DNA from: Spirochaetota bacterium
Lineage (GTDB): Bacteria > Spirochaetota > B62-G9 > DRHN01
NCBI GenBank assembly: GCA_030603285.1
Contig: JAUVYC010000001.1
Span: forward strand, 1 to 42,369
Direction: 5' to 3'
DNA: 42,369 bases
The translations under genes and the position numbers were made by a program. The notes beneath the pieces were generated by a model. That model was not told the DNA's origin and searched no databases. It worked only from the letters and a program-made list of their open reading frames with translations. Below are positions 14,629 to 42,047 of the stretch, piece by piece (the stretch's first letter is position 1; the number at the start of each line of letters is the position of its first letter).

Positions 14629-14629
14629 A

Positions 14630-15691: not shown

Positions 15692-15702
15692 GGAAGATAT
15701 TC

Positions 15703-23187: not shown

Positions 23188-24034
23188 CCCTCTCAGTAAC
23201 ATAATCGCATAAATTAAAGAATATCTTCTTAATTGGTCTTTCCTTTAATACCTTAATTTCTCCTTTTGCCCTCTCAGCATATTCTTTGGCTTTTTCAATC
23301 ATACTTATGTCAGAATTAAATATAGAGTCACCGTCCATATAATCATCGACAATTTGAAAAGACAATCCAAAGTATAGTCCATAATTTGCCAATGCTGTTG
23401 ATATTTTTTCATCTGCTCCATTTACCATCCCTCCGCTTTGACAGGATACAGAAAAAAGAGAAGCAGTTTTGTTCTCTATGACTTCAAGATATTCCTTAAA
23501 TGAAGGATTAATTCTGGAATTCTTTATTTTATACTCAAATATTTCACCGAAACACATTTTTTTTGCAATATCGCAGAAGATCTGTGAAAGCCTCTCATAC
23601 AGTTTATGATTTTTTATTTTTATACTGATGAGTAAAGAGAAGGACTGAGAATAAAGGATATCTCCAACCAGAACTGCTATGTGATTACCAAATTGTTTAT
23701 TTAGTGTCAATTGATGTCTGCGATATTTTGATTCATCAATAATATCATCATGAATAAGTGATGCCGAATGAATGAGTTCAATCGCGGTTGCCAGTTTTAC
23801 AAATTGCTTAATGTCTGACTTTTGGAGTTCATTAACCGCTTTAGCTGACAGTAAAACCAGAGCAGGTCGTAAACGCTTGCCTGGAACATTAAAGAGATGG
23901 CTGATAATCCCGTTTACAAATTTGTGATTTTCTGAACTATGTTTTATACCGATTAGTTTTATCTGTTCTTTTAATTCCCCCTCAACTTGAGACAGTTCTT
24001 CTGATATTGGTCGAAAGATCTCTTTAAGTTCCAT
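23174..24034 (-). CDS. Trans-polyprenyl diphosphate synthase (hepta/octaprenyl-type)
   Basis: First and second Asp-rich motifs LIHDDIIDE and IVDDYMDGD. Its 3' end overlaps the menA-like gene by 14 nt (convergent). Confidence 0.85.
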   Translation of the reverse strand: MELKEIFRPISEELSQVEGELKEQIKLIGIKHSSENHKFVNGIISHLFNVPGKRLRPALVLLSAKAVNELQKSDIKQFVKLATAIELIHSASLIHDDIIDESKYRRHQLTLNKQFGNHIAVLVGDILYSQSFSLLISIKIKNHKLYERLSQIFCDIAKKMCFGEIFEYKIKNSRINPSFKEYLEVIENKTASLFSVSCQSGGMVNGADEKISTALANYGLYFGLSFQIVDDYMDGDSIFNSDISMIEKAKEYAERAKGEIKVLKERPIKKIFFNLCDYVTERVKEI

Positions 24035-24289
24035 CTATTCTCTTTTCTATCTCTGATTTGTTAATCTTTTTAATTTCTTTCTTATAAATAATCTAATTGT
24101 AACAGCATAAAAAATATAATATATAGCTTTTTTCTGTCGATGTAAGGTTTTTTCTTCAACTGCCCATCTTAGTTTTTCAATCACTTTTTATTACTGCGAA
24201 CAATGGTATTGTTCAAGCAGGAAAATCACATCATCTTGACTTGATTTTAATAATTCTAAATATTATTATAAACAATGCAAGAATATAGT

Positions 24290-24384
24290 AGAGAGGATGA
24301 AACTGGTGTTTCAACTGGTCTTCAAAACCAGTAGCGGGCGGATAAAACCGTCTGTGGCAGGTTCGATTCCTGCCCTCTCTGCCA
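24290..24384 (+). tRNA. selC: tRNA-Sec (anticodon UCA)
   Basis: Hand fold: 6-bp D stem TGAAAC/GTTTCA with 4-nt loop TGGT; 6-bp anticodon stem ACTGGT/ACCAGT with loop CTTCAAA (UCA); long variable arm (about 7 bp, CGGGCGG-ATAAAA-CCGTCTG); T arm GCAGG-TTCGATT-CCTGC; acceptor AGAGAGG/CCTCTCT; discriminator G; encoded CCA. The 5' end is uncertain by +/-2 nt. It lies directly upstream of selA. Confidence 0.88.
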
Positions 24385-24489: not shown

Positions 24490-25914
24490 ATGCCAGATAA
24501 TCCCTACACCAACAAACTCAATAAATTACCGGGTGTTGATACAATTTTAAATTATCCTGATGTATCCAATTTAGAAAAAGAACACAGCCATGATGTTGTT
24601 GTTCATGCTATCCGGAAGGTGCTTGATCGTATACGGCAGGGTATTCTGAATGGAGGTGAAGAACCTCAGATAAAAAAAATTGTTTCTGATATTTTTATGA
24701 CCGTTCAAGGCATAACAGGGCGTTTGTTCAAACCGGTCATCAATGCCACAGGAGTTGTAATCCATACCAATCTTGGTCGTGCTCCATTTGGAAAACAGGT
24801 TGTGTCTGACGTACAGGAACTCATAACAGGATATTCTAACCTGGAATACGATCTTACAAATGCATGTCGTGGAAATCGGGGAGACCATGTCAGGGAGATA
24901 ATAAGGTTCCTTACGAATGCGGAAGATGCCATCGTAGTAAATAATAATGCTGCTGCTATCATTCTTACCCTTAATACACTTGCCTTGCAAAAGGATGTTA
25001 TAATATCTCGCGGAGAACTTATTGAGATTGGTGGATCCTTTCGGATACCCGAAATAATGGCAGCATCAGGGGCCAGAATGATTGAAGTTGGAACGACAAA
25101 CAGAACAAGGATTGAAGATTATGAAGGTACTATTGGACCAGCCACAGGAATCCTCTTTAAGGCCCATAAATCTAACTTTTCAATAAAGGGATTTACAGAA
25201 GAAGCCAGTATAAAGCAACTCTCAGCGCTGGGAAAAAAACACTCAGTGCCCTTGATCTATGATATTGGTTCAGGTCTTCTTCGTAAACCGAGGGGCCTGC
25301 CGATTAAGGACGAACCGGATGTCAGACAGGCGATCGAGGATGGAGCAGATATTGTGACGTTTAGTTGTGATAAGCTTCTAGGCGGCCCTCAGGCAGGAAT
25401 TATTGCGGGAAAAAAGGAATTGATAGGGCGGTTTTCATGCGCTCCAATGATGAGGGCACTCCGCGTTGGCAAACTAACCCTGGCATTTCTTAATGCTGCT
25501 TGCAGGCATTATCTTGACGATGAGATATTAATCAGTGCAACACCTCTGTTTAAAATGCTTGAGCGTCCGGTAAATGAACTGGAGCGGCTTGCACGCACTT
25601 TACAACAGGAACTTGGAACGCTTCGAATTGATGTTGTTATAATAGAGAGTACAGGCCAGTGCGGTGGCGGGACACTTCCGGATCTTGAGATCAAGAGTTA
25701 TGCAGTTAAATTAAAACCAGGCAGCAAAAGAAAAAAGGATAAAGCATTATGGGCTGAAGAAATTTTCAAAAAGCTTCACTTTCTTGAACGGCCGGTTATA
25801 GGAGTTTTGCGAAAAGGAGATGTCATTTTTGATGTTTTGACTGTCTTTGAGGAAGATATTTCCTACATTACAAGTGCCATTGCAAAAGTTGTGAAGGAAG
25901 TCAATGCACAGTAA
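24490..25914 (+). CDS. selA: L-seryl-tRNA(Sec) selenium transferase
   Basis: 474-aa ORF. N-terminus ...LNKLPGVDTIL typical of SelA, and the PLP-lysine motif FSCDKLLGGPQAG. It is adjacent to tRNA-Sec. Confidence 0.9.
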   Translation: MPDNPYTNKLNKLPGVDTILNYPDVSNLEKEHSHDVVVHAIRKVLDRIRQGILNGGEEPQIKKIVSDIFMTVQGITGRLFKPVINATGVVIHTNLGRAPFGKQVVSDVQELITGYSNLEYDLTNACRGNRGDHVREIIRFLTNAEDAIVVNNNAAAIILTLNTLALQKDVIISRGELIEIGGSFRIPEIMAASGARMIEVGTTNRTRIEDYEGTIGPATGILFKAHKSNFSIKGFTEEASIKQLSALGKKHSVPLIYDIGSGLLRKPRGLPIKDEPDVRQAIEDGADIVTFSCDKLLGGPQAGIIAGKKELIGRFSCAPMMRALRVGKLTLAFLNAACRHYLDDEILISATPLFKMLERPVNELERLARTLQQELGTLRIDVVIIESTGQCGGGTLPDLEIKSYAVKLKPGSKRKKDKALWAEEIFKKLHFLERPVIGVLRKGDVIFDVLTVFEEDISYITSAIAKVVKEVNAQ

Positions 25915-26183: not shown

Positions 26184-26420
26184 TTACTGCTTCTCCGGCT
26201 TCCAGTTCACAAAATTACATTCTATACACTTCGCTTTAAGTTTTGCTCTAAGTAAATCTTTTTGTTCTATGGGCAATTCCATACCCATATTACAGTCTGT
26301 GGATATCCATCTGGGCACAGGAATAATCCTGACCCTGATGCCAGCCTCCCTTGCTATACGCTCAGCCTGTAACGCATCATGTGTGGAAGAAAATGTAATT
26401 ATAGATCGTTCTTTAGTCAT
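26184..26420 (-). CDS. DUF3343 (putative Se/S carrier-like) small protein
   Basis: 78-aa ORF. The pattern IITFSSTHDALQAERIAREAGIRVRIIPVPRWISTDCNMG is typical of DUF3343. Its start overlaps the stop of the cysteine desulfurase gene (ATGACTAA coupling). Confidence 0.75.
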   Translation of the reverse strand: MTKERSIITFSSTHDALQAERIAREAGIRVRIIPVPRWISTDCNMGMELPIEQKDLLRAKLKAKCIECNFVNWKPEKQ

Positions 26421-27558
26421 TGCATATCTCAGCTAAAGATTTCAGGAAATATTCAACTTCCTCCTTAGTCGTAAAATAACCAATGCTTGCCCTAACAGTA
26501 CCTTCTGGGAATGTACCAATTATCTTGTGCGCGGATGGAGCACAATGAAGTCCAACCCTTATCATAATGCCAAAACGGTCTTCAAGCTCCGATGCTATCT
26601 CCGCTGGATCACGTCTCTTTACTGTGAAGGAAAATATACCTACGTTAAATCTCATATCACGGGGACCATACACAACTACGTCTTTGATTGTTTCCAGTCC
26701 ATCCCGGAAGATTTTACCGATCTCAAAAATAGATTGACGTATTTTTTCAATCGTCTCTGCTGCAATAAAATCCAGTGCAGCAGAGAGACCTGCAAGTCCC
26801 GGTGTGTTAGGAGTACCGCTTTCATATTTATCCGGTAATATATCCGGTTGGATTTCCTCACTGGAGGCGCTTCCTGTACCACCATATTTAAGCGGAACCG
26901 GACATAAGCCTTTTCTGATATAAAGTCCTCCCACACCCTGTGGACCCATCAAACATTTGTGCCCACTAAACGCTAGTAAGTCTATAGGAAGTCTGGTAAG
27001 GTCAATTGATACACATCCGAGTGTCTGTGCAGCATCAACCAGTGATAAAATTCCATGTTTCCTTGCAATCCTACAGCACTCTTCAATTGGCTGAATTGTG
27101 CCGGTCACATTAGAAGCATGAGGCATTATAATCAATACAGTTTCTGGTCGAAGGCAATTCCTCAGGTCATCTGGGTCTGTAATACTATCAGCATCCGACC
27201 TTACCCTGGTAACAGTTATATCACGTTCCTCTATCATGGCTGAAAGAGGGCGCATAACAGAATTATGCTCAAGACTGGTCACAACTACATGATCTCCTTG
27301 CTTCAAGATTCCCTTGATGGCAAGATTGAGAGCCTCTGTACAATTAAGTGTAAAGATGAGGTGGGATGAATTATTAATTCCCAGAAGACCTGCTATTTTA
27401 TCTCTTACGTCTGTAACAATTCTACTTGCTCGAATACCTTGTTTATGCACAGACCTTCCCGGACTTGCCCCTATAGTGCGCATAAAATTGTCAATTGCTT
27501 TATAAACGCAATCCGGCTTTTTAATAGATGTTGCTGCTGTATCTAAATATACTTCCAT
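26413..27558 (-). CDS. Class-V aminotransferase: cysteine desulfurase / selenocysteine lyase family
   Basis: 381-aa ORF with PLP-lysine motif FSGHKCLMGPQG and the active-site Cys context RVGLHCAPSAH. Confidence 0.85.
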   Translation of the reverse strand: MEVYLDTAATSIKKPDCVYKAIDNFMRTIGASPGRSVHKQGIRASRIVTDVRDKIAGLLGINNSSHLIFTLNCTEALNLAIKGILKQGDHVVVTSLEHNSVMRPLSAMIEERDITVTRVRSDADSITDPDDLRNCLRPETVLIIMPHASNVTGTIQPIEECCRIARKHGILSLVDAAQTLGCVSIDLTRLPIDLLAFSGHKCLMGPQGVGGLYIRKGLCPVPLKYGGTGSASSEEIQPDILPDKYESGTPNTPGLAGLSAALDFIAAETIEKIRQSIFEIGKIFRDGLETIKDVVVYGPRDMRFNVGIFSFTVKRRDPAEIASELEDRFGIMIRVGLHCAPSAHKIIGTFPEGTVRASIGYFTTKEEVEYFLKSLAEICND

Positions 27559-27646
27559 GTTGTATTATAGTCTCTGCGACTATATGGCTGAATATTAACT
27601 AAAACTCTAAATTATAAAGTGACCACCTGTTGAAATGACAAAACTT

Positions 27647-28729
27647 TTATCTCTCACGTGCTTTTAAACCAATACTCAGACAGACTATTAAACCGAGGAC
27701 AACAGAAACAATCCCCCCAAGTTGCACACCTTTAAGAGAACTTGCAATCATAAAGTTATGCGAAAAAGCGGCTCCCGTAATCATTCCCATTACCGTAATA
27801 ATTGAATCACCATTACCCTGGGCAGCAAGCACAAGCTGTCTGAAAGGACACCCTCCAAGAAATACTGACCCGAGCCCCACAAGCGCCATTGATAGAAAAT
27901 TCCATAACTGATTATTATGAGCAGCAGGCTGTCCAGTAAACCCAGGCTTAAAAAAACCAAATATTAAATTAATCACAAATACCCCAGCAAATGTTCCCAC
28001 TAAACCTGAGAGAAGATGAGGGGACCTGAAGAGAATCATATCACGTATACCGCCGGCAAAACATAACCGTGAACGTTGACCCAGTATACCCACAAGCATA
28101 CCGGCTCCCAACGAGAAGGGTATCGGTGCATGTACGCTCTCTGGGCCCTTCTCACTAAAAAAAATAAAAGGAGGCCTCATAAAAATCAGGATTACACCAC
28201 CAATCGCCAACAGCGGCATTATCAAGGATGTAATGTTGAACTTCTCTTTATAAGACCTGCCAAGTGAAGTCCCTTTATGCAAAAACATTGTTCCTGTTCC
28301 GATCCCGGTGATAAAACCTCCGAGACCAAACAAAGCATTCCCATCTCCACCTCCAAGCCGTAACACCATTCGCGTTGGACAGCCAAGGAAAACAAGTGAA
28401 CCAATCATGACAAACATCCCTATTATGAATCTAACTGCTGGAGATGAACCGGACCTTGCAAAAGATTCCTTGCCAAAGAAGGTAGAGATTGCAGCACCCA
28501 GTATTATACCCAATATCTCCGGACGAAGGTACTGTACAGCTTCGGCGCGATGGAAACCCAGAGCTCCTGCAATATCACGTTCAAAACAGGCCATGCAAAA
28601 ACCCATATTCGGGGGATTCCCAAGTTTTACCAAAATACCTCCTACTACACCAAGGATAAATCCTGCTGTTATCACTACAGGCGGAAACTTTTCTTTCCAG
28701 TCAGCACTAATCTGCCAGGTGTTGCTCAT
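27647..28729 (-). CDS. yedE: YedE/FdhT-family putative selenium-metabolism membrane protein
   Basis: 360-aa polytopic ORF with paired Cys-containing half-helix motifs GFCMACFERD and RLCFAGGIRD plus GGCPFRQ. Translationally coupled (ATGA) to yedF upstream. Confidence 0.8.
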   Translation of the reverse strand: MSNTWQISADWKEKFPPVVITAGFILGVVGGILVKLGNPPNMGFCMACFERDIAGALGFHRAEAVQYLRPEILGIILGAAISTFFGKESFARSGSSPAVRFIIGMFVMIGSLVFLGCPTRMVLRLGGGDGNALFGLGGFITGIGTGTMFLHKGTSLGRSYKEKFNITSLIMPLLAIGGVILIFMRPPFIFFSEKGPESVHAPIPFSLGAGMLVGILGQRSRLCFAGGIRDMILFRSPHLLSGLVGTFAGVFVINLIFGFFKPGFTGQPAAHNNQLWNFLSMALVGLGSVFLGGCPFRQLVLAAQGNGDSIITVMGMITGAAFSHNFMIASSLKGVQLGGIVSVVLGLIVCLSIGLKARER

Positions 28730-29395: not shown

Positions 29396-30445
29396 CTATA
29401 CTCTCCTAACTCTAATCAGGGGTTTATCAGAGACTCCTAGCACCTTCCCTACCACCTTACATTGAGTTGATAATTTCCGTTCTGCACTGTCCATCATTTC
29501 CTTCAACTTATCGTATGGACAGGAGATTAGTAACCCTCCTGAAGTTTGTGGATCAAACAACACGTCCTGTTCAGCGAGGTCAATGTTACTATCAAATTTC
29601 ACCATATTACCAACGTACTCTCGATTGCTATATGTAGCACCCGACAATAAGCCCATTGCAGCATAATCCAGCACGTTAGTCAAAAGTGGAACAGAATCAA
29701 AATAAATATCTATCGAAACACCACTTGCTTTTGCCATTTGATACACATGACCAAGAAAGCCAAAACCTGTGATATCAGTACATGATACCGCACCGTATTT
29801 CTGTGCTATAATTGATGCATCTGCATTAAGCGTGCTCATAAATTGATTTGCTTCATTCTCATGCATTTTGTCAGCCAGACCAGCTTTAGCTGCCATTATG
29901 GTAATACCTGTTCCCAGTGGTTTGGTAAGAATCAGAGCATCTCCCATTTTTGCATGTGAATTATCCAATATCTCCCGAGGATTAACAATACCGGTAACAG
30001 CGAGACCAAATTTTGGTTGTGAGTCCACTATTGAATGACCGCCCAGGAGCACAACCCCCGCTTCTTTCAATTTAGAAATTGCGCCACTTATTATTGCCTT
30101 CAATATTTCGGGTCCTAAAGCCTTTACAGGGAAACATACGATTGCCAGAGATGTCAGAGGCTCCCCCCCCATTGCATATATATCACTCAGTGAGTTGGCA
30201 GCAGCAATTTGACCGTAAATGAAAGGGTCTCTTGCAACAGGCGGGAAATAGTCTACTGTCTGCACCAGACATTTATCATCGGAAATCTGGTAAATTCCTG
30301 CATCATCCATGGACTGAGGTCCGATAAGAAGAGCCGGACTATCAGGAAGCTCAACATCCTGCAGGATACAGGATAACATATCTGCAGGTACCTTTGCTGC
30401 ACAACCACACTCTCCTGAAATTTTAAACAAATCAACTGACATCAA
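29396..30445 (-). CDS. selD: Selenide, water dikinase (selenophosphate synthetase), Cys form
   Basis: 349-aa ORF. N-terminal glycine-rich Cys motif SGECGCAAKVP (Cys, not UGA, at the catalytic position) and PurM-like fold motifs DDAGIY and LLGGHS. RBS aaggag lies 9 nt upstream. Confidence 0.9.
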   Translation of the reverse strand: MMSVDLFKISGECGCAAKVPADMLSCILQDVELPDSPALLIGPQSMDDAGIYQISDDKCLVQTVDYFPPVARDPFIYGQIAAANSLSDIYAMGGEPLTSLAIVCFPVKALGPEILKAIISGAISKLKEAGVVLLGGHSIVDSQPKFGLAVTGIVNPREILDNSHAKMGDALILTKPLGTGITIMAAKAGLADKMHENEANQFMSTLNADASIIAQKYGAVSCTDITGFGFLGHVYQMAKASGVSIDIYFDSVPLLTNVLDYAAMGLLSGATYSNREYVGNMVKFDSNIDLAEQDVLFDPQTSGGLLISCPYDKLKEMMDSAERKLSTQCKVVGKVLGVSDKPLIRVRRV

Positions 30446-30762: not shown

Positions 30763-32745
30763 TTATACTCGTTTTGCTTTAAGCGCGGCAGTGCCTTTTT
30801 CTGTTATCATACGCATGTCCCCAGATCGTCTGGTAACACCTTCGGCATCATATATACCTAATAGAAGCAGGCATATCTTTCTGTTGCCGCTAACGAGGTT
30901 ACGAAACTCTGCCACGGTCATGCCATCCTGGCGGTCAGCAAGAGCCTGATTATAAAGAGCCTGATTAGACAACGCTTGCAGCAATTTCTTTCTGCTGTGA
31001 TCCACTACTGACGCATGAAGATAGTTACCATCTATAAAATAGGCCTCTTTCTTTTCAACAAGATAACGCAGAATATTATTTAATCCCTGTTCGTCTATAC
31101 CCTGTTTCTTCGCCGCAGGAATAAGCTCCGACATAATTGGAGTACGCATCTTACAATTTTTCAGGAAATTCGATACAAAGCTGACCTTGCGGTTTAATTC
31201 CGGTCCAATGTCTCCTGTGTGGTTATCGAGCACCCATGTTTGTTCCACACGTTTTATTTTCCTATCCGATTCCATTTTATTAAGCAGCATTCTTAAAATA
31301 ACTTCTGCAGAAGAGCTATGGTCTATCCTTAATATTCCCATAAGTTCCTCAGTTTTACGGCCTTTCCTGTCAAGGGGATTTCGTGAGTGAAAGGCAGCAA
31401 TGTTTTTCAATAATTGCTCCTTTAATCTGTCGTGCTCTCTCTTTATTATTAAATACACAGTATCACCGGAAGTATAGGAAACAATATGTGTTGATAGATA
31501 ACCGGATAATACTTCACGCATCCTATCAGGTGAGACATTCAGTATATTGGCAATCTCTACATGGCTAATCGAACTGAAGTGCTTGTTTACTTCTGCAGCA
31601 GCAAGTTCCTGCAGGTTACCTTCAGATATCCTGGCCATACTTTCAATCAGTTTAACAGGTCGCCTCCTGTGATGTAGAGGGAATCCATCGATTACATTAC
31701 CTCCGCCAAGAGTCAAATCGCTCGACGTGTTTCGAATTACAAACCTATCATCATACTGGACAATGCATGGGGTATCGAGATGTATCTGAACCAGAGCGGT
31801 ATTTCCCCCGGTTAACCTGTCACGATCAATCAAGTGCACCTTTGCCTGTTGTTCATACGTGCCAAGATGGAAAACAACTTGATTCCACAGGCCAAAACTG
31901 CTAATATGTTGAAAGAGACGCAGTTTTACATCGAGCATTTTTGTATGGCGAAGAATACGGTCTGAAAGGATCATGCCTCGTTTAAAGTCTTCACGGTTAA
32001 GCCCTACAAGGTTTATTGCTGCCCTGTCACCGGCAACTACTTCCTGGGCTTTTTTGCCGTAACGTTCAATATGACGCACACGCAACCTTTTTTCTCCAGG
32101 TAATAGGTACGCTGTATCACCTACATGGAGGACTCCACCTATCACTGAACCTGTGACTACCGTACCAATGCCCTTTACACTGAAAATCCGGTCAATAAAC
32201 ATCCTAAAAACCTCGCCAACCGGCCTATCAATAACTTGAGATGCAACCTGGTTAATGCATGCCATTAACTGGTCAAGCCCCTCGCCTTTGATTGAAGATA
32301 CTCTTACGATTGGACAATCCGCCATAAAAGTCCCATGTAAAAGTTCCTTTATTTCTTCCTCGGCAAGTTCAATAATGTCAGGTTCAACCATGTCAATTTT
32401 CGTTATAACAGCAATTCCGCTCTGTATGCCCAGTGCTTCCATAATCTGAAGATGCTCACGTGTTTGAGGCATAACACCTTTATCTGCTGCAACAACCAGC
32501 AGGGCAAAGTCAATACCGCTTGCACCACCTACCATTGTATGAACAAAATCGCGATGACCTGGCACATCAATAATACCGATTTTATCCCCGGAAAGAAGAG
32601 TCATATAAGCAAACCCCAGGTTTATTGTTATGCCCCGTCTCTTCTCTTCTTTGTGTGTATCACAATCAATACCTGTCAGTGCTTTTATTAATGTGGTCTT
32701 TCCATGATCGATGTGACCCGCAGTACCCATAATAAGGTGTCTCAC
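30763..32745 (-). CDS. selB: Selenocysteine-specific translation elongation factor
   Basis: 660-aa ORF. GTPase motifs GHIDHGKT, DVPGH and TKID, EF-Tu-like domains, and a long C-terminal winged-helix extension typical of bacterial SelB. GTG start has RBS ggagag 4 nt upstream. Confidence 0.9.
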   Translation of the reverse strand: MRHLIMGTAGHIDHGKTTLIKALTGIDCDTHKEEKRRGITINLGFAYMTLLSGDKIGIIDVPGHRDFVHTMVGGASGIDFALLVVAADKGVMPQTREHLQIMEALGIQSGIAVITKIDMVEPDIIELAEEEIKELLHGTFMADCPIVRVSSIKGEGLDQLMACINQVASQVIDRPVGEVFRMFIDRIFSVKGIGTVVTGSVIGGVLHVGDTAYLLPGEKRLRVRHIERYGKKAQEVVAGDRAAINLVGLNREDFKRGMILSDRILRHTKMLDVKLRLFQHISSFGLWNQVVFHLGTYEQQAKVHLIDRDRLTGGNTALVQIHLDTPCIVQYDDRFVIRNTSSDLTLGGGNVIDGFPLHHRRRPVKLIESMARISEGNLQELAAAEVNKHFSSISHVEIANILNVSPDRMREVLSGYLSTHIVSYTSGDTVYLIIKREHDRLKEQLLKNIAAFHSRNPLDRKGRKTEELMGILRIDHSSSAEVILRMLLNKMESDRKIKRVEQTWVLDNHTGDIGPELNRKVSFVSNFLKNCKMRTPIMSELIPAAKKQGIDEQGLNNILRYLVEKKEAYFIDGNYLHASVVDHSRKKLLQALSNQALYNQALADRQDGMTVAEFRNLVSGNRKICLLLLGIYDAEGVTRRSGDMRMITEKGTAALKAKRV

Positions 32746-32780: not shown

Positions 32781-34502
32781 CTAATCTCTGGTTAATACTG
32801 CCTGCATAACCCTGAACAGGTTAAATCTAACCAACCTTACAGGCCACCTTAACTCTTCCTGTCTGCTGATATTTGAATTTTCCAGTTGATTGAACCTGTT
32901 TCTCAGTTTTTCAATCTCTATTTCTCGTAACTTTTCATCTTTGATTGATACAATCTCATCAATCCACCGGATAAGTTGTTTTGCCTCTTTGATTAGTACC
33001 TCTAACTTTTCAGCTTCCTTTTGTTTCAATAAACCGAATCTTGCTTTTAATCGATTAAGCTCAAGGGCAGCGTCGTATGTGGATGTAACGATTTCATGTC
33101 GACTCATCCATTCTGTCTCGTAGCTGAGTATATATTTCCAACTGGGTTGTAAGAGAGCCTGCCTGTGCTCCTCCAGGGTTTTATAGAATAACCTGTAACC
33201 GTATTTTTGAGGATCTTCAAATGCCCGGCTTCCTGGATCTAAAAATGGAGATAAGGCAGAGATATAGGGATGTATCCTGCCTGAGTTGGCCTTTGAAAAA
33301 TTTTCTAACAACCCCTCGCAATATTTTATTGTCTCCTTTACTGACTGGGAGGTTTGCTTGGGCAAACCTATCATAAAAAACAAATCTATCCGCTTACATC
33401 CAACTTCCAGAGCATCCTCAATGGTTTTTTCCAGGCTTCTGTTATTGTAATCCTTGCCAAAGGCCTTCCGAACCTCTTCATCATGAGACTCCGGTGAAAT
33501 CTGGAGGTTGAAGTTAGGAATAGAGCGAGCGATCATCTTTAAAAATTCTCTGGTTGCAGGGGAAAAGATCTCCATCGCTATGTGATTTTTGATCTTTTTT
33601 TCCCTGATCTTATCCAACAGTTCCTCAGCATATCGTGCACCTCCCTGGCGAATATCATCTAAAATAAAGATTGGACCTTTCAGACACTTCGAAATCAGAC
33701 CAATATCCTTTGCAACCAGTTGAGGACTTCGATAAGATGGAATGCTCCTTCTGCATATCCGCTTATAGTATTGAGCTGAACCACCACAAATTACGCAGTT
33801 ATTGATACATCCTTTCCAGGGAAGTACAGCCACAATGGGATAATTAATCCAACCTTGAAATGGTAGATGACCTATGAGATCATTATATCGAATACTCGAA
33901 TTTATTATGTTCCTGTAGTCAAAAGATACATCATCTAAATCAGAGGGTATGTGAGAGAATTCATTCACCCTGACTTTATTGTCATCATTACGCCACGTCA
34001 AATTAGGCACATCACATGGCGGCTCATTCTGCCCAATTCTTTTAATAAGTTGCAGCAGGGGTTGTTCTGCTGAATCACCCCTGATAACATAATCGACCTG
34101 GGGATATCTAATAAGTTCCTGATGGTAATATGAAGCTGACATCCCTCCGAAGATTATCGGGGTTTTTGGGTGATATCTCTTAATAATCCTGGCTAATTCA
34201 AGACTTCCCTGCGCATGCACAAGCCAATGTAAATCTATGCCAAAGGCTAATGGATTTAAGGATTTGATTAACTTCTCAACACAAAAACGTTTATTTTTTA
34301 ACATCCTGAGGGCAACATTTATAATGCGCACTGAATATCCATACCTTTGAAGGTATTCAGATATTGTCATAAAGCCAATAGGATACATCTCAAATATCGG
34401 CGTTGAAGGCACAAGATCACTGATTGGGCCGTACATAATTGACTTTTTTCGGAAATCATAAACACTTGGTGGATGGAGGAGAACTAAGTCAGCTTCGGGC
34501 AT
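32781..34502 (-). CDS. B12-binding-domain radical SAM protein
   Basis: N-terminal Rossmann-like B12-binding-type region (VLLHPP..., IIFGGMSASY, VIRGDSAEQPL) followed by the radical-SAM cluster motif GCINNCVICGG (CX3CX2C). ATG 34502 has RBS gaagga at 9-nt spacing; the track ORF starts at TTG 34529. It ends 35 nt upstream of selB. Confidence 0.8.
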   Translation of the reverse strand: MPEADLVLLHPPSVYDFRKKSIMYGPISDLVPSTPIFEMYPIGFMTISEYLQRYGYSVRIINVALRMLKNKRFCVEKLIKSLNPLAFGIDLHWLVHAQGSLELARIIKRYHPKTPIIFGGMSASYYHQELIRYPQVDYVIRGDSAEQPLLQLIKRIGQNEPPCDVPNLTWRNDDNKVRVNEFSHIPSDLDDVSFDYRNIINSSIRYNDLIGHLPFQGWINYPIVAVLPWKGCINNCVICGGSAQYYKRICRRSIPSYRSPQLVAKDIGLISKCLKGPIFILDDIRQGGARYAEELLDKIREKKIKNHIAMEIFSPATREFLKMIARSIPNFNLQISPESHDEEVRKAFGKDYNNRSLEKTIEDALEVGCKRIDLFFMIGLPKQTSQSVKETIKYCEGLLENFSKANSGRIHPYISALSPFLDPGSRAFEDPQKYGYRLFYKTLEEHRQALLQPSWKYILSYETEWMSRHEIVTSTYDAALELNRLKARFGLLKQKEAEKLEVLIKEAKQLIRWIDEIVSIKDEKLREIEIEKLRNRFNQLENSNISRQEELRWPVRLVRFNLFRVMQAVLTRD

Positions 34503-34506
34503 TAGT

Positions 34507-35415
34507 TTACATCCTTCTCTTTGGGCCAAACAACCTGTTTCCCACTCGAATTGATTCTATCACTCCGTTGTAAGCCAAAGATATCTCTGTATGGGCAGAA
34601 AACCCACATCTTTCACAGGAAATTTCTCCCCTATCTTTCACATAACAACCCTGAGTAATCTTATTATCAGGTCCCACACTGGCGATCATCCATGAATGGC
34701 ATTTCCATCGATTATTCTTCAGCGCCTTAAGGCAGGCATACGAGTTGGTAACAGGGAAACCATCGCTTTTCATCTTGATGAGATCATCCAGAATTGTCAG
34801 GCGTTTGTTAAAGGGAAGAAACATCTCATCCTCTGCTCCATTATAAGGATAATGAAACTGAATAGTTATTCCTTTCACCTTTGAAGAAAGAAACTCTACC
34901 AATTCCGGTACTTCTACCCAGTTGATGGAGTTAATTGTTATATGGGCATATACCCTCGAATGAGAGCAGTTTTTCAGGTTAGCAATAATTCTTTCAAAGC
35001 TTTTGCCTCTGATACGGTCATGCGTTTCCTTAAAGCCATCTATACTTACCCAGATAATATCAGAATCAACCTTGAGGGGAAATGTTCCATTTGTAGTTAT
35101 TCCTACACAAAAGAAAAACCTCTTTGCTTCTTTCACAATATCATTAATATCATAGCTTCCATCTTTCCATACGAATGGCTCGCCGCCTTCAATAATAACT
35201 ACTCTAATGCCGAGATCATAAAGCTTTTTAAAAGACTCCTTTGCCTGTGAAAAAGAAAGACTCTTCCCTTTCTTGCTCCAAAACGGGCAGTGTATACATT
35301 TAAGATTACAATTATAGGTGAGCTTTACTCCTGCTAAAACAGGCCTTTTAATATTCAGAAAGCGGCTTTTTGCATAGCAAGAAAGAAGGTATACATACCA
35401 GTGTAAACCTGTCAT
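34507..35415 (-). CDS. Radical SAM protein with C-terminal Cys-rich (SPASM/twitch-like) auxiliary-cluster region
   Basis: 302-aa ORF. Has LTYNCNLKCIHCPFW (CX3CX2C), IEGGEPF, and C-terminal cysteines CHSW...QGCYV...ISCERCGFSAH. Confidence 0.8.
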   Translation of the reverse strand: MTGLHWYVYLLSCYAKSRFLNIKRPVLAGVKLTYNCNLKCIHCPFWSKKGKSLSFSQAKESFKKLYDLGIRVVIIEGGEPFVWKDGSYDINDIVKEAKRFFFCVGITTNGTFPLKVDSDIIWVSIDGFKETHDRIRGKSFERIIANLKNCSHSRVYAHITINSINWVEVPELVEFLSSKVKGITIQFHYPYNGAEDEMFLPFNKRLTILDDLIKMKSDGFPVTNSYACLKALKNNRWKCHSWMIASVGPDNKITQGCYVKDRGEISCERCGFSAHTEISLAYNGVIESIRVGNRLFGPKRRM

Positions 35416-35725
35416 CTACGTACTTCTCAGTAAATATCAATTCAGCAATTTTATATATAACAGGATTTCTTCTCATCCTGTTTATTGTTAGTTACCTCTT
35501 CAATGTACCTCGTAATCTTTCTGTCAGCCTTTTTGATTCCTATAATTGCCTTTTTAAGAAGTTAATTATTTTAGGTATCATCGACAAACCATATATCACC
35601 ACAACAACACCAACAAATGCAATCAACCCCTGAAATCCAAATCTACTAACCATATTCCTCATCTCCCTTTCATTAAATTATTGTTATGTTCAATATCTTT
35701 GAAAAAATTCCTTTATTGCCCGGAT

Positions 35726-36343
35726 TCACAATTTACCCTGCACTCTCTTATCCATCCTTGCCATATCGACAGCAATTGATCTTGCTCTTTTCAGGTTCTC
35801 TTCAGTGTTAACATTAAAAAAAGCAATGCCTGCCGGGTCAAACCTTTCAACTTCTGTTTTATCGATATACTTTATGCTCTTCTCAGTAAAGAAAGACTGA
35901 ATCCTTAGATTATTTTTATCAAGATATTTCTTGATAGATGTTAAACAATCTTTTGAGTAGATAGCATGTAAAGGTTCCAAAAACCGTTCGAGCCTGGGGA
36001 TGATTACATCGTGTTGTCCTATTAACTCCTTCATATAAGAGATTAACCCGGTATTTAGAAAAGGAAGATCACAGCTTACAACAAAATCGTGCTTATCCTC
36101 TGAAATTGTAAGACCCGAATAGATACCGCCTAAAGGACCTTTGTCTGGTATCAGGTCAGGAACTAAATCCACCTCCAGATGTTTGTATTTTTCCGGGCAA
36201 TTGGTGACAATGATAATTCGAGTAAAGATAGTTGATAATACAGCTATTTCTTTTTCGATTATAGTTTTTTGACCGATCCGAAGAAAGGCTTTTTCATCAC
36301 CAATTCTTTGATTATTGCCACCAGATAGGATTATTGCAGCCAT
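35726..36343 (-). CDS. mobA: Molybdenum cofactor guanylyltransferase
   Basis: 205-aa ORF with N-terminal AAIILSGGNNQRIG and the GPLGGIYSGL motif typical of MobA. It starts 8 nt after the fdhE stop. Confidence 0.85.
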   Translation of the reverse strand: MAAIILSGGNNQRIGDEKAFLRIGQKTIIEKEIAVLSTIFTRIIIVTNCPEKYKHLEVDLVPDLIPDKGPLGGIYSGLTISEDKHDFVVSCDLPFLNTGLISYMKELIGQHDVIIPRLERFLEPLHAIYSKDCLTSIKKYLDKNNLRIQSFFTEKSIKYIDKTEVERFDPAGIAFFNVNTEENLKRARSIAVDMARMDKRVQGKL

Positions 36344-36351: not shown

Positions 36352-37233
36352 TTACTTTTCTCTGAATAGAAAAATATCAGGTCCCCTGTATCCTTCTTTA
36401 TCTGCAACAATATCCAGCACTAAGGTAGATAAATTCTCAACAAACAAGTTCACACCACTGTCAATCTTCCGGCAATCTATGGTCTTAATGTATCTCTTGC
36501 ATTTTTCGCATACATCTATTCTATGTGCCTGTTCATTTTCTACAAAGAAGTATCGCAAAGATTCCTGATCATTATTTTCACAGAAAGGGCAGACCAGCCT
36601 TTTAAACAACCATTCCGAATGGCATAACGAGCAAAACAGCCATCTTCTGCCAGTTTCTTCTTCTAACCGGACTACCAGAGGCTCTTTACCGCACACAGGG
36701 CAATTTCCTCTAAGCCAGTTGCTTGTGTCAACAAATTCCCCAAGCTTTTCCCCATACTTTGAAATAAAAGGAGAAAAGGCATGATTAATAAGAAAATAAA
36801 ATACAGGATAATCAATCTTCAGGTCACAGGCTAACCTTTCAAGGATAATTCCATCCTCCACAAGGCCTTTAATAAGCACCTTTTGTTGGTCAGCCAGAGA
36901 GGAGCTGTCAAAGTACGCAGGCACTGCTTCACCCCTCTGATTGCGTATAATCCGGTAAATATCTTCCAATATTTTATTAACCAGATCCTGGTCTATTTCA
37001 ATATCTTCTGCCCTCAGCAAAGGCAGCCCTTCTGAATTTCTACTGCTGCAAAGATCTTTGTTAAAAATACTCAGATCAGGTTTGAATAACACTTTAACAT
37101 GCTGTTGGGCCTTTATAGTAGATTCATAGAATTTCAGTATCTCATTTAATTCCGATTTTATGGCTTTTAACCCAGCAATCTGATCAAGGGCTGTGTTATA
37201 AAATTCTTCTCCCATCTTCTCCAATAAAAGCAC
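36352..37233 (-). CDS. fdhE: Formate dehydrogenase accessory protein FdhE
   Basis: 293-aa ORF with the four CxxC pairs of FdhE: CPVCG, CSLCHSEW, CPFCEN and CEKCKRYIK. Confidence 0.85.
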   Translation of the reverse strand: MLLLEKMGEEFYNTALDQIAGLKAIKSELNEILKFYESTIKAQQHVKVLFKPDLSIFNKDLCSSRNSEGLPLLRAEDIEIDQDLVNKILEDIYRIIRNQRGEAVPAYFDSSSLADQQKVLIKGLVEDGIILERLACDLKIDYPVFYFLINHAFSPFISKYGEKLGEFVDTSNWLRGNCPVCGKEPLVVRLEEETGRRWLFCSLCHSEWLFKRLVCPFCENNDQESLRYFFVENEQAHRIDVCEKCKRYIKTIDCRKIDSGVNLFVENLSTLVLDIVADKEGYRGPDIFLFREK

Positions 37234-37296: not shown

Positions 37297-38187
37297 TTAT
37301 ATCTGCCCACCGATCAGGATTATATATCTCAGATAAAAGCCGCCTAAGAGTACCATGGTAGAAACAACCAGAGAGGTGTGAGGACTTTTGGCCCCTCCCT
37401 TGAACCCAATGATAAGAGGTACAACTAAACCAAGGAAAATAACACCAACCCACCATAGAAGTCCAAATGCAGAACCTATAATCGCCCTCATTGAAGCAGA
37501 ACCGATTCCAAAAACAATGAAAAGGATAACCATTATAAGCTGAACCACAATTACCCGGCTGTTTAATATCTCCAGTTTTGGAACATCAGAGCCAATCTCA
37601 CTCTCTGGGTTGCAAATCTGTAAACCTGCCAGTATAAACACTATCGCTGCTATCCCGGCTACGATAGCTGAAGAAACAAAAACAACAGGAAGCAGCCAAT
37701 TGTTCCAGACAACATTATTGGATGCAGCTATCAACACTCCGGTATAAGTTGTAACCAGCAATGCGAAAGGAACTCCAACAACTCCTACGACTTTCTGAAA
37801 TATTTCAGCCCATTTGAATGGATAGGCGAGAAGAGCAACTATCAGATATACAAACGATAGAATAATAAACACAACCACCAGCCATATTCCTATTGACATG
37901 GTTGATCCAATTTTAAACATAATAAACGGAGATTCAAGATGATTCAGTTCCTGCGCCCGCTTTAAAATCATCTCCCAGAAACGCCCCGGCCGACCCAGGT
38001 CAATAATTAAAAGAACCACACCTAAAATCACAGGCCATGGTGCAATAAGGGCACCGGCTGTACTTATTCTCCGGTATTTTCTGCCTCCTGCCAGGTTAGC
38101 GACTACAGCAACCATAAAGATCGCAGCGCCTAAACCTGCTGTAAATAAATCTATAGCTACGGGTGCGCCCCAAACATAATGTTCCAT
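37297..38187 (-). CDS. NrfD/PsrC-like integral membrane quinone-interacting subunit of the periplasmic formate dehydrogenase
   Basis: 296-aa ORF with about 8 hydrophobic helices. N-terminus WGAPVAIDLFTAGLGAG-like (WGAPVAIDLFTAGLGAA) is typical of NrfD. It starts 2 nt after the Fe-S subunit stop. Confidence 0.75.
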   Translation of the reverse strand: MEHYVWGAPVAIDLFTAGLGAAIFMVAVVANLAGGRKYRRISTAGALIAPWPVILGVVLLIIDLGRPGRFWEMILKRAQELNHLESPFIMFKIGSTMSIGIWLVVVFIILSFVYLIVALLAYPFKWAEIFQKVVGVVGVPFALLVTTYTGVLIAASNNVVWNNWLLPVVFVSSAIVAGIAAIVFILAGLQICNPESEIGSDVPKLEILNSRVIVVQLIMVILFIVFGIGSASMRAIIGSAFGLLWWVGVIFLGLVVPLIIGFKGGAKSPHTSLVVSTMVLLGGFYLRYIILIGGQI

Positions 38188-38189: not shown

Positions 38190-38966
38190 TTATTCACCTC
38201 CTGTCTTAGCTTCGGATTTTGACCTTTCTTTTAACAAATAACTACCTATGCCGGCAAGAATGGCCAAACCTGGTATCACGCCCATCAGCCACCTCCAGAT
38301 AATCTTTTCTGTTGGTTTTCTTGGATTCTCAGGCAGTCCATATATCGAAGCATTTTCTGGCAAAAGGTACATCGCATGCTGACCCCCAAGCTCTTTCTCA
38401 CCGTAAATACGTGGAGCAAAACCCTGATTTGTAAGAATCTGCTGTCTTTCCCTTGCAATCCTCAGCATTTCTGCTCTTGAGCCAAACCGGATAGCCCCTG
38501 TAGGACAGACCGTAGCGCAGGCCGGCTTCAGTCCATTTTTCACTCTATCCAGGCACAACCAGCATTTTCTGACAGTCCCGCTGTGATGATCAAACTTCGG
38601 AATATGGAATGGACATGTTTCAACACAAGCCTTACACCCTGCACAAATACCCTGGTTGATATAGACTATTCCATTCTCTAATTTATTAATTGCCCCGGTA
38701 GGACAGACCTGCGCACAGACAGCATCGGTACAGTGGAGACACTGCTGTTTACGGAATAACCACCTTGGATTGTCATCATAATCAACAGGTTCAATAAACT
38801 GAATGAGCGTCCACGTCTCCGGAGAAAGCTGTGGTGGATTCTGGTAAGTGCCTGTAAATCGAGTCTTTTCTGCCTTGTGTTGATTCCACTGCTTACAGGC
38901 TACCTGGCATCCTCTGCACCCCATACACCTTGATACATCAATCAACATTGATAACTCTGCTGTCAT
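38190..38966 (-). CDS. Formate dehydrogenase iron-sulfur (beta) subunit, FdnH/HybA-like with C-terminal TM anchor
   Basis: 258-aa ORF. Four ferredoxin-type Cys clusters (CMGCRGCQVAC, CLHCTDAVCAQVCP, CAGCKACVETCP, CWLC...CATVCP) and C-terminal helix GVIPGLAILAGIGSYLL. The start abuts the fdnG stop. Confidence 0.85.
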   Translation of the reverse strand: MTAELSMLIDVSRCMGCRGCQVACKQWNQHKAEKTRFTGTYQNPPQLSPETWTLIQFIEPVDYDDNPRWLFRKQQCLHCTDAVCAQVCPTGAINKLENGIVYINQGICAGCKACVETCPFHIPKFDHHSGTVRKCWLCLDRVKNGLKPACATVCPTGAIRFGSRAEMLRIARERQQILTNQGFAPRIYGEKELGGQHAMYLLPENASIYGLPENPRKPTEKIIWRWLMGVIPGLAILAGIGSYLLKERSKSEAKTGGE

Positions 38967-41900
38967 TTAGACCACCTCCTTCTTATTAACATTGCACAGG
39001 AAAGCCTTATACTCCGGAATCATGGTATTGGCATCTCCGACATGAGGTGTCAAACAGTTTGCGCTGGAACCTCTGGCCAGACCTGTATAACCCCAGTGCC
39101 ATGGAATGCCAATCTGGTGTACTGATTTTCCGTTCAGTTTGAATGGCTTAAACCGTGGAGTAACGCATGCAATACCTTCCAAAGTACCGCGAGCTGTTGT
39201 CACTATTATTTTGTTACCGTTTTTGATCCCCTTCTCAGCAGCAAGTTCAACGCTCATCTCCACAAATACATCCGGCATAAGCTCCACCAACCATGGGAGA
39301 TTACGCGTCATTGCGCCTGCCTGCCAGTGTTCTGTTACACGATATGTGGTGCCTACAATCGGAAATTCATCAGGCGTCCCGATTTTATTATTCTCGGGCC
39401 TTACCTCATGCCATAGTTTTATCGCCGGGTTGATCCTTGTTGCATGTCCCATCGGATTTTTAGTCAGAGGACTTTCAAGCGGTTCGTAATGTTCCGGCAA
39501 TGGACCATCTACCCTCCCCATCCCAAAGATCCTCGCGTGACCCTCGGGCTTCATAATAAAGGGATACTTTGCATCATCCCGCAAAGTTCCATCCGGATTC
39601 ATTAGCGGGTACCATCCGCCGTCCGGGACATCACCAATCCACTTCCTCGATATATACTTTCCATCCGATGCCCCACCCTTGAATACAATTACAGGATGTT
39701 TCTTGTCCCAGGGCCGGCCTTTCATGTCAACAGACGCCCGGTTGTATATTATCCGCCGGTTAACAGGCCAGCACCATGCCCATTCAGGGTATAACCCAAT
39801 ATTGGTCGGGTCTAATCCATTACGGCGCGTCGCCATATTGCCAGCCTCTGTATAAGAAGCGCAATACAGCCAGTTGCCGGAAGAGGTTGTCCCATCCGCT
39901 TTCAGTATTCCGAAGCTCGGTAAGAGTTTCCCGGTATTAAGATCATACCCATTTATCTCCTTAGCAACTGCATGCACATCCGGTTCGTCGCCTGTACCAT
40001 AATCCCATGCCATATCAAGAATAGCTCCGGCAATCGGACCACCCTGATTCTTATATCGTGCACTTACAGCTTTAAAGAGCCTGTCCAGTATCCACAGGTC
40101 AGATTTAGCTCTGCCTGGAGGATGAACCGCAGTGTAACGCCACTGACTCCAGCGTCCTGAGTTGGTTATACTCCCCTCCTTCTCCATGGACGCGGCCGCA
40201 GGTAAAAGGAAGACCTCGGTTTTTATAGAAGCAGGGTCAACCGTGTCGTCGAGGTCATCTCCTTTGGGACGACGCCAGAAGTTAGCAGTATCAGTTTCCC
40301 AGAGATCTGCACATACAAGCCAGTCTAATTTCTCCAGCGCCTTACGTTCTTTCTGAGCATTAGGCCCGCCTACTGCGGGATTCTGACCCAAACAGATCAT
40401 ACCTTTTATATCACCATCATACATAGTCTCAAACAGGGAGATATGGGAGTAGTCCTTACCCACCTCTCGTTTGGGCAGATATCCAAAGGCAAAATCATTT
40501 TCCGGCGTTGCTTTATCGCCGTACCATGATTTCAGAAGACTAACGATGTATTTTCTTGCATTTCCCCACCAGTCAGCGCTCCTCGGGTCTTTATTTTTGC
40601 CCTCATATTTAATTCTAGAATATGTATCAACAGATACATCATCTTCCTCAGGGCACTTAAGATACCCCGGCAGATAATGAAATAGTATGGCATGGTCTGT
40701 CGAACCCTGAACATTAGACTCACCACGCAAAGCATTAATTCCTCCGCCAGCCACCCCCATATTAGCCAGCAGCAGCTGAAGGATAGCATACCCGCGGATG
40801 TTTTGCGTTCCATAGGTGTGCTGTGTAGTACCCATCGCATACATGATCGTCCCGGCCTTGCCTCTCTTTCCGGATTCCGCAAAGGTCCTGCATACCTCAT
40901 TATACACATCAGCAGGTGTACCGGTGATGTTACAGACTGTTTGCGCATCGTAACGTGAAACATGCTTTTTAAGAAGCTGGAATACACAGTCCGGATGACT
41001 GAGTGTCTTGTCCTTTTTGTGAATCCCGTCGCTATCAAGCTGGTAACTCCAGGTTCCTTTACTGTACGAGCGTTTTTTAGGGTTGTACCCGCTGAATACA
41101 CCATTCATATCAGCCGGCAGCTTAAAAGCGGGATCGATAAGAAACGAGGCGTTGGTGTACTCGCGCACATACTCCATATTATAGCTCTGTGGGTTTTTCT
41201 CCATATCGTCCAGGACATACTTTATCATACCGTTAATAAACGCAATGTCTGTCCCTGAACGCAGTGGCGCATAAATATGGGCCTTTGAAGAAGTCCGTGT
41301 AAACCGCGGGTCAACACTTATAAGTTTTGCCCCTTGTTCAATTGCTTTTGTTACCCATTTGAAAGATATGGGATGGTTTTCTGCGGCATTACTGCCAATA
41401 ATCATTATTCTGTCCGCGTTGCGAATATCGATCCAGTGATTTGTCATTGCACCCCGCCCAAATGTCTCGGCCAAACTGGCCACAGTGGCGGAGTGTCATA
41501 TGCGGGCCTGGTGCTCTAAGTAAACTACACCCAGGGCACGTGCAAACTTGCTGTACAGGTAACATTCCTCATTATCAAGAGCAGCGCCTCCGATCGCAGC
41601 TATATTGTCAATACGATTGGTCTTTCTGCCATCAGACAGTTCTGCATCACGTGTTTCTTTGATCCTGCTGGAAATACGTTCAATTGCCCAATTCCAGGAC
41701 TTTTCCTCCCAGTCGCTGCCCCCTGGCGCACGGTATTTAACCTTGTCAAGACGACGTTCATTATTAGCTACCTGATATAAAGCTGATCCTTTGCTGCACA
41801 GAGAGCCCTGGTTAATGGGATGATCAGGGTCCCCTTCAATATTGATAACCTTGCCGTTACTCACAGAAACAATCTGTCCGCATCCGACAGCACAATAAGG

Positions 41901-42047
41901 GCATATAGTAGTTGTTTGTTTTGCATATCGTATTCGCAGTTGTAGATCTTGTGCCCTGGCTGTAAGCGGCTTCAGATTAAACAAGCCCGTAGCTATTAAA
42001 GCTGTAACTCCTGAAAGCTTTAAAAAATCTCTTCTTGTTAAATCCAT
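38967..42047 (-). CDS. fdnG: Selenocysteine-containing, Tat-exported formate dehydrogenase catalytic subunit (FdnG-like); UGA at 41496..41498 decoded as Sec
   Basis: Track ORFs 41496..42047 and 38967..41483 are in the same frame, separated only by TGA. The junction reads VYLEHQARI-U-HSATVASLAETFGRGAMTNHW, the conserved Sec active-site context of FdnG/FdoG-type enzymes. Twin-arginine signal MDLTRRDFLKLSGVTALIA...ARA. N-terminal cluster motif CPYCAVGCG. The joined product is 1026 aa. Confidence 0.9.
41450..41495 (-). promoter_or_regulatory. SECIS-like mRNA stem-loop immediately 3' of the fdnG UGA
   Basis: The mRNA after UGA reads CACUCCGCC-AC-UGU-GGCC-AGUUU-GGCC-GAG-ACA-UUUG-GGCGGGGUG. Lower stem is 9 bp (one G-U). 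Upper stem is UGU/ACA plus GGCC/GGCC with apical loop AGUUU starting 18 nt after the UGA. Confidence 0.6.

Follow-up and report, generated by a model that had tools for sequence, protein, structure and literature searches.

What do two radical S-adenosylmethionine (SAM) genes do in the middle of a formate dehydrogenase (FDH) and selenocysteine (Sec) gene island? The question is raised by a stretch of 42,369 nucleotides from a Spirochaetota bacterium (contig JAUVYC010000001.1, positions 1 to 42,369; the whole stretch is called the window here), in which a gene for a 302 amino acid (AA) radical-SAM protein (34507..35415, minus strand) and a gene for a 573 AA protein with B12-binding and radical-SAM domains (32781..34502, minus strand; below, with its orthologues, the B12 gene) lie between mobA and selB. 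An earlier note on this DNA, made from the letters alone, had pointed out both open reading frames (ORFs) and had named chemistry on selenium compounds or on the molybdenum cofactor among the candidates for their role. The two ORFs are where that note had put them, but the neighbourhoods of their relatives point in another direction. We give a probability of roughly 0.5 to the proposal, drawn from sequence and gene order, that the larger protein, a member of the family TIGR04190, acts on menaquinone or on its prenyl precursor; that the reaction might be a cobalamin-dependent methylation is a tentative suggestion made by analogy.

The larger protein is a full-length member of TIGR04190, scoring 694.5 bits against a cut-off of 500 (residues 14–557 of the 582 residue ORF against positions 1–537 of the 554 in the profile), and an archaeal relative with 52% identity to it scores equally. 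Its B12-binding domain (PF02310, 55.8 bits, cut-off 32.1) and its CINNCVIC motif had both been recognized earlier; a Pfam Radical_SAM match is also present (PF04055, 43.1 bits, cut-off 29.5), and cysteines C232, C236 and C239 of the motif are invariant in 16 sequences. Judged by these features the protein is of class B (cobalamin-dependent) radical-SAM architecture, with cobalamin use predicted. Reading from the TTG at 34529, where the ORF opens, would give 582 AAs, but we place the start at the ATG at 34502 (573 AAs, MPEADL...) because this is where the homologues start, as do the genes called in contigs of 98% identity. Therefore 4 nt separate the two radical-SAM genes; the close spacing described earlier is real, and the suggested overlap is not. 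The AlphaFold2 model (predicted local distance difference test score, pLDDT, of 75.5) matches the folds of TsrM, TokK, MgmA, OxsB and CysS with template modelling (TM) scores of about 0.5. These enzymes are mostly methyltransferases, although OxsB is not one. The fold search returned only generic class B relatives, and a PDB sequence search with the protein gave no matches. TIGR04190 itself is a curated NCBIfam sequence definition without an assigned function, whose members carry only the generic family name; the name comes from Ta0216 of Thermoplasma acidophilum, and we found no function, structure or paper for TIGR04190 or Ta0216 in the literature and databases searched. With at least 7,800 clusters at the 90% identity level the family is large, and its conservation is strong (bacterial and archaeal members are about 50% identical). 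It is frequent in Chloroflexota and Thermodesulfobacteriota and has members in Nitrososphaerales, Bathyarchaeota and Hydrothermarchaeota.

The smaller protein has the CNLKCIHC motif and the C-terminal cysteine cluster attributed to it earlier, and in an alignment of 52 sequences C36, C40 and C43 of the motif and C239, C257, C267 and C270 of the cluster are invariant, while C228 is nearly so. The C-terminal cysteines suffice for one auxiliary cluster, and to that extent the earlier label "SPASM/twitch-like" stands; the full seven-cysteine SPASM motif is absent, and the protein is twitch-like at best. It matches Pfam Radical_SAM (64.6 bits) but reaches the cut-off of no named NCBIfam family. Its top match is TIGR03961 (128.4 bits, cut-off 306.05), and it scores about 60 bits with the heme-pathway models NirJ/AhbC, slightly more than with the HpnH model TIGR03470 (51.7 bits, cut-off 225.05). 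DUF3463 (PF11946), for which a precomputed match is present in most of its homologues, scores 28.4 bits here, under the Pfam cut-off of 31.3. MoaA, which the earlier note had already discounted, and other radical-SAM proteins of molybdenum cofactor synthesis are excluded by the scores (38.4–44.3 bits with MoaA models, cut-offs 231–325). The AlphaFold2 model (pLDDT 89, with low confidence at residues 260–264) has an N-terminal amphipathic helix, and its top fold matches are SkfB (twitch), CteB and SuiB (TM about 0.6). Both radical-SAM proteins have many homologues at 55–80% identity across candidate phyla, and their match lists appear to share many contigs, the first sign that the two travel together.

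The gene neighbourhoods of 80 species-representative genome loci and 80 metagenome loci with TIGR04190 relatives, plus single-protein look-ups, were analyzed by scoring the neighbours with BLASTP and Pfam/NCBIfam (loci are identified by L numbers below), and the B12 proteins were grouped at 62% identity into 15 clusters. Many of the contigs are short, and the counts are lower bounds. Among 164 non-redundant loci, selA or selB is within 3 kb of the B12 gene in 54, fdhE within 6 kb in 32, menA or a polyprenyl synthase gene within 3 kb in 30, and the small radical-SAM gene within 1.5 kb in 14. The distribution of these neighbours over the family is quite different, in that sel adjacency occurs in 2 of the 15 clusters and menA or polyprenyl synthase adjacency in 7, archaea included. 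The conserved linkage to Sec and FDH genes that had been proposed is borne out by the sel and fdhE counts, but its sel part is confined to those two clusters, and at the neighbourhood level TIGR04190 is not tied to the Sec trait. The earlier note had also considered that orthologues might lie mostly in unrelated neighbourhoods, and this is largely what we find; 110 of the 164 loci have no sel gene nearby. Because the remaining clusters sit in quinone or isoprenoid neighbourhoods, where neither sel nor fdh genes are in reach, we do not regard selenium or molybdenum cofactor chemistry as the best reading.

The clade to which the window's B12 protein belongs spans Planctomycetota, Aerophobetes, Bipolaricaulota, Lentisphaerales and unclassified bacteria, and in 17 of its 19 loci the small radical-SAM gene is within 1.5 kb of the B12 gene, which makes the pairing of the two more than chance. 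The typical gene order is fdnG-fdnH-nrfD-fdhE-(mobA)-menA-polyprenyl synthase-(tatA)-radical SAM-B12 radical SAM, and it recurs in L005, L009, L013, L014, L085, L087, L165, L171 and L172; the pair is thus contiguous with the quinone genes in these related islands, being preceded directly by menA and the polyprenyl synthase gene. The genes that follow the pair vary. They are tatA/B-tatC in some members, selA-selB-selD-tusA-yedE-desulfurase in L165, modABC-4HBT-moeA in L171, an inverted selB-selA in L172, and NiFeSe hydrogenase genes in L170, where the TIGR04190 gene is beside FlpD-NiFeSe hydrogenase-HycI-HypF. The window has the same island components in a rearranged order. Its MenA-type 1,4-dihydroxy-2-naphthoate (DHNA) polyprenyltransferase gene (22237..23187, plus strand; TIGR00751 107.9 bits, cut-off 102.15) has DHNA prenyltransferase models for all its top matches, and next to it is the gene for the polyprenyl-diphosphate synthase (23174..24034, minus strand) which in the related islands is directly upstream of the radical-SAM pair. 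The whole resembles a portable island in which an FDH-N comes together with its genes for export, cofactor, selenocysteine and quinone supply. Its FDH has an NrfD-type subunit (37297..38187, minus strand; Pfam NrfD 118 bits), a type of protein that serves as a quinone-interacting membrane anchor and presumably does so here, and this was a lead for the quinone link.

Quinone and isoprenoid genes also accompany the B12 gene where there is no such island. In Dehalococcoidia a MenA-type gene abuts or overlaps it (gaps of −1 to 40 nt) in a gatB-SAM_HAT-menA-B12 radical SAM operon. This order, in which the second gene encodes a SAM hydroxide adenosyltransferase (PF01887/PF20257), is conserved in L079, L137, L143, L144, L146 and L147; cysS, ispF and ispD are on the opposite strand at operons of this type. 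In Zixibacteria and Ignavibacteria menA precedes the B12 gene, and DHNA prenyltransferase models are the top match of the MenA-type neighbours in every clade tested. In a Chloroflexota clade the B12 gene is inserted between nuoC and nuoD (L080 180-6948, with the order nuoA, nuoB, nuoC, B12 radical SAM, nuoD, nuoH, nuoI, nuoJ; also L055, L071, L129 and L132), and in L169, whose lineage was not determined, it adjoins a polyprenyl synthase gene and nuoA-L. Among the archaea it adjoins a geranylgeranyl-reductase-family (GGR) gene in L036, L066 and L167; it comes after the GGR-family gene in Nitrososphaerales, and the Hydrothermarchaeota contig L168 has a polyprenyl synthase gene and a methyltransferase-GGR-B12 radical SAM run beside cytochrome b genes. 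The theme that these informative contexts share is the membrane isoprenoid quinone, represented by its prenyltransferase, the synthase and reductase of its side chain, and the enzymes by which it is reduced or oxidized.

The insertions into respiratory operons could also be read in another way, namely that the B12 enzyme, alone or together with the small protein, is a maturation factor for membrane respiratory oxidoreductases (FDH-N, complex I, NiFe(Se) hydrogenase), for example by methylating carbon atoms of subunit residues as Mmp10/MgmA do for methyl-coenzyme M reductase. The position of the B12 gene within nuo operons, at nuoC/nuoD, and within FDH operons beside fdhE and flanked by tatA/tatBC would suit such a factor, as would the hydrogenase genes that adjoin it in L170, the fdhE and hydrogenase genes that adjoin the small radical-SAM gene in L164, and the presence of MgmA among the top fold matches. 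On the other hand, the menA-B12 radical SAM operons of Dehalococcoidia contain no oxidoreductase, the archaeal neighbours are GGR and polyprenyl synthase genes, FDH-N, Nuo and hydrogenase have no homologous subunit in common in all the contexts, and the Anaerolineae and selAB-only contexts would likewise go unexplained. We consider this explanation unlikely.

Nor do prenyl synthase and GGR neighbours by themselves single out a quinone, since the pair might modify some other isoprenoid membrane lipid, whether a polyprenol, an ether lipid or another kind, much as archaeal tetraethers are modified by Grs, Gmm, Cgm and Ted and hopanoids by HpnP, HpnR and HpnH. The larger protein has weak NCBIfam similarity to HpnR (49.5 bits, cut-off 650), HpnJ and a ladderane-lipid B12 radical-SAM protein, the smaller one is weakly similar to HpnH, and several archaeal lipid-tailoring enzymes are B12 radical-SAM proteins (bioRxiv 10.1101/2025.10.20.683597), all of which counts for a lipid substrate of this sort. 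The prenyltransferase that recurs beside the B12 gene is, however, specifically of the MenA type, and where the B12 gene is inserted into nuo or FDH operons its context suggests the respiratory chain, so that a non-quinone lipid is an improbable substrate. Identity with Ted or with the glycerol dialkyl glycerol tetraether ring synthase Grs is disfavoured indirectly, by the contrast between the bacterial spread of TIGR04190 and the near-absence of Grs from bacterial metagenome-assembled genomes (MAGs); a survey of 533 bacterial hot-spring MAGs had Grs homologues in just four, from Acidobacteriae.

The linkage to selenium genes is tight where it occurs. In the largest cluster, of 62 loci and of Syntrophales/Thermodesulfobacteriota (delta-proteobacterial) type, selA comes directly after the B12 gene in 51, and the stop codon of the one often overlaps the start codon of the other (L029: 9989-11734, 11731-13179); fdnG-fdnH-fdhE and two variable genes often precede the B12 gene there. 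These variable genes between fdhE and the B12 gene (lipoprotein, patatin-like and metallophosphatase-like) gave no lead. Over the whole sample, the next gene downstream of the B12 gene on its strand is selA in 52 loci, and in 40 of these the two ORFs are at most 50 nt apart. The linkage is preserved in no fewer than four gene orders (B12-selA, selA-selB-B12, B12-x-selA-selB and B12-selB-selD), a persistence that suggests selection for co-expression. Of the sel-linked loci for which over 8 kb of upstream sequence is available, 12 are without an FDH gene nearby. In the window the stop codon of the B12 gene is, as had been noted, 35 nt before the GTG start of selB, and the gap has a GGAGAG ribosome-binding site and no terminator-like site. 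All of this would be expected if the pair carried out radical chemistry on selenium or on the FDH cofactor, such as formation of C-Se or C-S bonds, methylation of a selenium metabolite or of the Mo/W-bis(pyranopterin guanine dinucleotide) cofactor, or modification of tRNA-Sec or SelB. Yet the two sel-linked clusters are neighbours in the neighbour-joining tree, with the window's clade next to the sel-linked groups, and a single ancestral FDH/quinone/Tat/Sec island that later decayed could have left the present pattern. The family is in addition present in Nitrososphaerales, Bathyarchaeota and Hydrothermarchaeota and is named after a Thermoplasma gene, and none of these lineages is known to use selenocysteine. 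The small radical-SAM gene is absent from the largest cluster, the most strongly sel-linked of all. The B12 protein is not itself a selenoprotein, a possibility dismissed by the lack of any interrupted ORF or in-frame TGA in the B12 ORFs of about 170 loci. A direct role in selenium or FDH-cofactor chemistry is therefore, in our opinion, very unlikely. A reading that bridges the two themes would have the B12 enzyme substitute demethylmenaquinone at C2 with methylthio or methylseleno, using a SelD- or desulfurase-derived donor, to yield a quinone that resembles methionaquinone or contains selenium, or else modify tRNA-Sec or SelB. The methylthio/methylseleno-quinone form of it would explain MenA and the tight selA/selB/selD linkage together, but it is highly improbable, and we know of no selenium-containing quinone.

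Quinone tailoring, which we prefer, would proceed as follows. MenA and the polyprenyl-diphosphate synthase (22.2–24.0 kb of the window) would make demethylmenaquinone in the membrane, and the TIGR04190 enzyme would then modify its naphthoquinone or its prenyl chain, perhaps by transferring a methyl group carried by methylcobalamin to a carbon that is out of reach for ordinary SAM methyltransferases; methyl transfer is favoured because of the class B precedent and the closest folds. The small radical-SAM protein, an accessory limited to the window's clade, might act on the same lipid in a further radical reaction. The modified quinone would be the electron acceptor of the adjacent NrfD-anchored, Tat-exported, selenocysteine-containing FDH. 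The island would accordingly bundle the FDH structural genes and FdhE with MobA and, in relatives, Tat genes, with the selenocysteine genes (SelA/B/C/D, YedE, desulfurase) and with the quinone genes (MenA, prenyl synthase, radical-SAM pair), and the linkage to FDH and Sec genes would arise because a menaquinone-reducing, Tat-exported selenoprotein FDH needs all of these. Family membership, domains, conserved cysteine ligands and neighbourhood counts are established here; both the substrate of the pair, a quinone, and its chemistry, methylation, are inferred, the functional evidence being gene context throughout. Leads in this direction are the N-terminal amphipathic helix of the small protein and, among characterized enzymes, its sub-cut-off similarity to HpnH. 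The namesake of the family provides a lead, not a test, as T. acidophilum makes methylated and methylthio-menaquinones (PMC6770870). Likewise only a lead is that no enzymes are known to make methionaquinone or omega-cyclic menaquinone (PMC13386864). There are also 39 species that make menaquinone without menG/ubiE (PMC13386864).

Several observations weigh against a quinone substrate. The largest cluster has no menA or prenyl synthase gene within 10 kb and has its B12 gene joined to selA instead. In a sister group of that cluster (L037, L032 and L044) the B12 gene closes a selA-selB operon, its start overlapped by the selB stop in L037 and L032 and separated from it by an inserted LysR gene in L044, and FDH and men genes are absent from the vicinity. 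Selection for co-expression with sel genes is accounted for only in part by the quinone hypothesis. Two homologues of the small radical-SAM protein (62–64% identity) are encoded without a B12 partner, in L164 (1372-2313) next to fdhE and FlpD/NiFeSe-hydrogenase/HycI genes and in L166 (10001-10909) near hydrogenase and MTHFR genes. In the 42 Anaerolineae loci the B12 gene is between MoxR and DUF58 genes, a context that is uninformative on quinones. Finally, the known menaquinone ring methylases, MenK and MqnK, belong to class C of the radical-SAM enzymes and not to class B.

The other genes of the window agree with the selenium and FDH assignments made in the earlier note. Upstream of the pair on the minus strand are fdnG (38967..42047, read through its Sec codon), fdnH for a four-cluster ferredoxin subunit (38190..38966; found by profile search), the NrfD-type subunit gene, and, from family profile matches, fdhE (36352..37233) and mobA (35726..36343). 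The in-frame TGA of fdnG (41496..41498) falls on the canonical Sec site (...EHQARI*HSATVASLAETFGRGAMTNHW), and the gene was called as two genes in L001. Downstream on the same strand are selB (30763..32745; TIGR00475, 340 bits), selD (29396..30445; NCBIfam match), a YedE-family putative selenium transporter gene (27647..28729; TIGR04112, 450 bits) and a class-V aminotransferase gene (26413..27558; NCBIfam match) for a cysteine desulfurase or SclA-like selenocysteine lyase, so that fdnG through the desulfurase gene form one co-directional block. On the plus strand are selA (24490..25914; TIGR00474, 523 bits) and the tRNA-Sec gene selC (24287..24383). The pair does follow fdhE-mobA on the same strand, but the 310 nt between mobA and the small radical-SAM gene contain an ORF of 37 codons (35540..35653, minus strand) with a GGGAG ribosome-binding site. 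Its product can be aligned with TatA over the N-terminal transmembrane helix and the hinge; a full-length tatA is at this position in L165, L171 and L172, an equivalent gene is called in L001-L003, and the ORF may encode a truncated or minimal TatA. The radical-SAM pair is probably co-transcribed with the neighbouring FDH and Sec genes; promoter and terminator scans across the pair gave site counts at shuffle level and were uninformative.

A number of smaller features of these loci deserve mention. A hairpin with an 8 bp stem at 35459-35482, about 45 nt upstream of the small radical-SAM gene's start, lacks a clear T-run when read on the minus strand, and may serve in regulation or as a weak terminator. 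The convergent menA and polyprenyl-diphosphate synthase genes overlap by 14 nt at their 3'-ends (23174-23187). L001-L003, which are 98% identical to the window in the radical-SAM genes, have a gene for a 75 AA TusA after selD where the window has YedE and the SclA-like desulfurase (26413-28729), so the selenium-supply end of the island varies among close relatives. The window has a second, cytoplasmic-type FDH/NuoEFG-like cluster on the plus strand (12296-21944), with NfnAB-like genes (12296-14628) followed by genes for a NuoE-like protein (15703-16173), a NuoF-GltD fusion (16088-19282) and an FdhA/NuoG-like protein (19275-21944) that has no in-frame stop. A row of short AhpC/thioredoxin-like gene fragments between fdhE and the radical-SAM pair of L170 (3360-4766) look like selenoprotein genes cut at TGA by the gene caller. 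Among the 80 genome loci, a MoxR AAA+ ATPase gene is directly upstream of the TIGR04190 gene in 17, of Anaerolineae type (a cluster represented by the Chloroflexota locus L068, 8975-9946), and a DUF58 gene is directly downstream in 11 (for example L031, 11807-13105), the two flanks being counted separately; MoxR and DUF58 genes are normally adjacent partners.

We found no publication in the literature searched that ties a radical-SAM enzyme dependent on cobalamin to menaquinone, or TIGR04190 to menA, nuo, FDH or selA/selB, and TIGR04190 is a class B family with a probable quinone role that this literature does not describe. If so, a cobalamin-dependent step would be added to anaerobic quinone biosynthesis, and formate respiration in many uncultured anaerobes would gain a cobalamin requirement. 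Such a step might explain quinone variants that lack known enzymes (methionaquinone, omega-cyclic and extra-methylated forms), and it might bear on quinone use in the Chloroflexota, many of which appear to be without known quinone pathways (PMC13386864). The selA/selB-B12 radical SAM operons are a separate puzzle and one that is directly testable.

Compared with systems already described, the pair is physically embedded among the canonical FDH-N maturation and Sec genes (FdhD/FdhE/MobA and SelA/B/C/D), and this linkage is kept in two clades, but the pair has no homology to them and most TIGR04190 members are outside such islands. The smaller protein is closer to the adenosylhopane synthase HpnH, whose target is an isoprenoid double bond (PMC13459092), and to the archaeal PTO1314 family (TIGR03961) than to MoaA, and most of its homologues match DUF3463, the C-terminal domain of HpnH. 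It differs in falling below the curated cut-offs of both families. MenK, MqnK and MenK2 have the role that we propose here, in that they are radical-SAM enzymes with which anaerobes convert menaquinone to a quinone of lower potential. They are HemN-like class C proteins without a cobalamin domain, whereas the larger protein has a B12-binding domain and only 19.3 bits with the HemN-type model, and membership of their class is rejected for it on these grounds. HpnP/HpnR, Gmm/Cgm/Pgm, Grs and Ted, on the other hand, have the same N-terminal B12-binding domain and radical-SAM barrel as the larger protein, and their substrates are membrane isoprenoids like the one predicted here, where prenyl synthase and GGR genes are neighbours. 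The similarity to HpnR is weak, and unlike the genes of these class B lipid enzymes, the TIGR04190 genes keep company with menA and the respiratory complexes rather than with hopanoid or tetraether genes.

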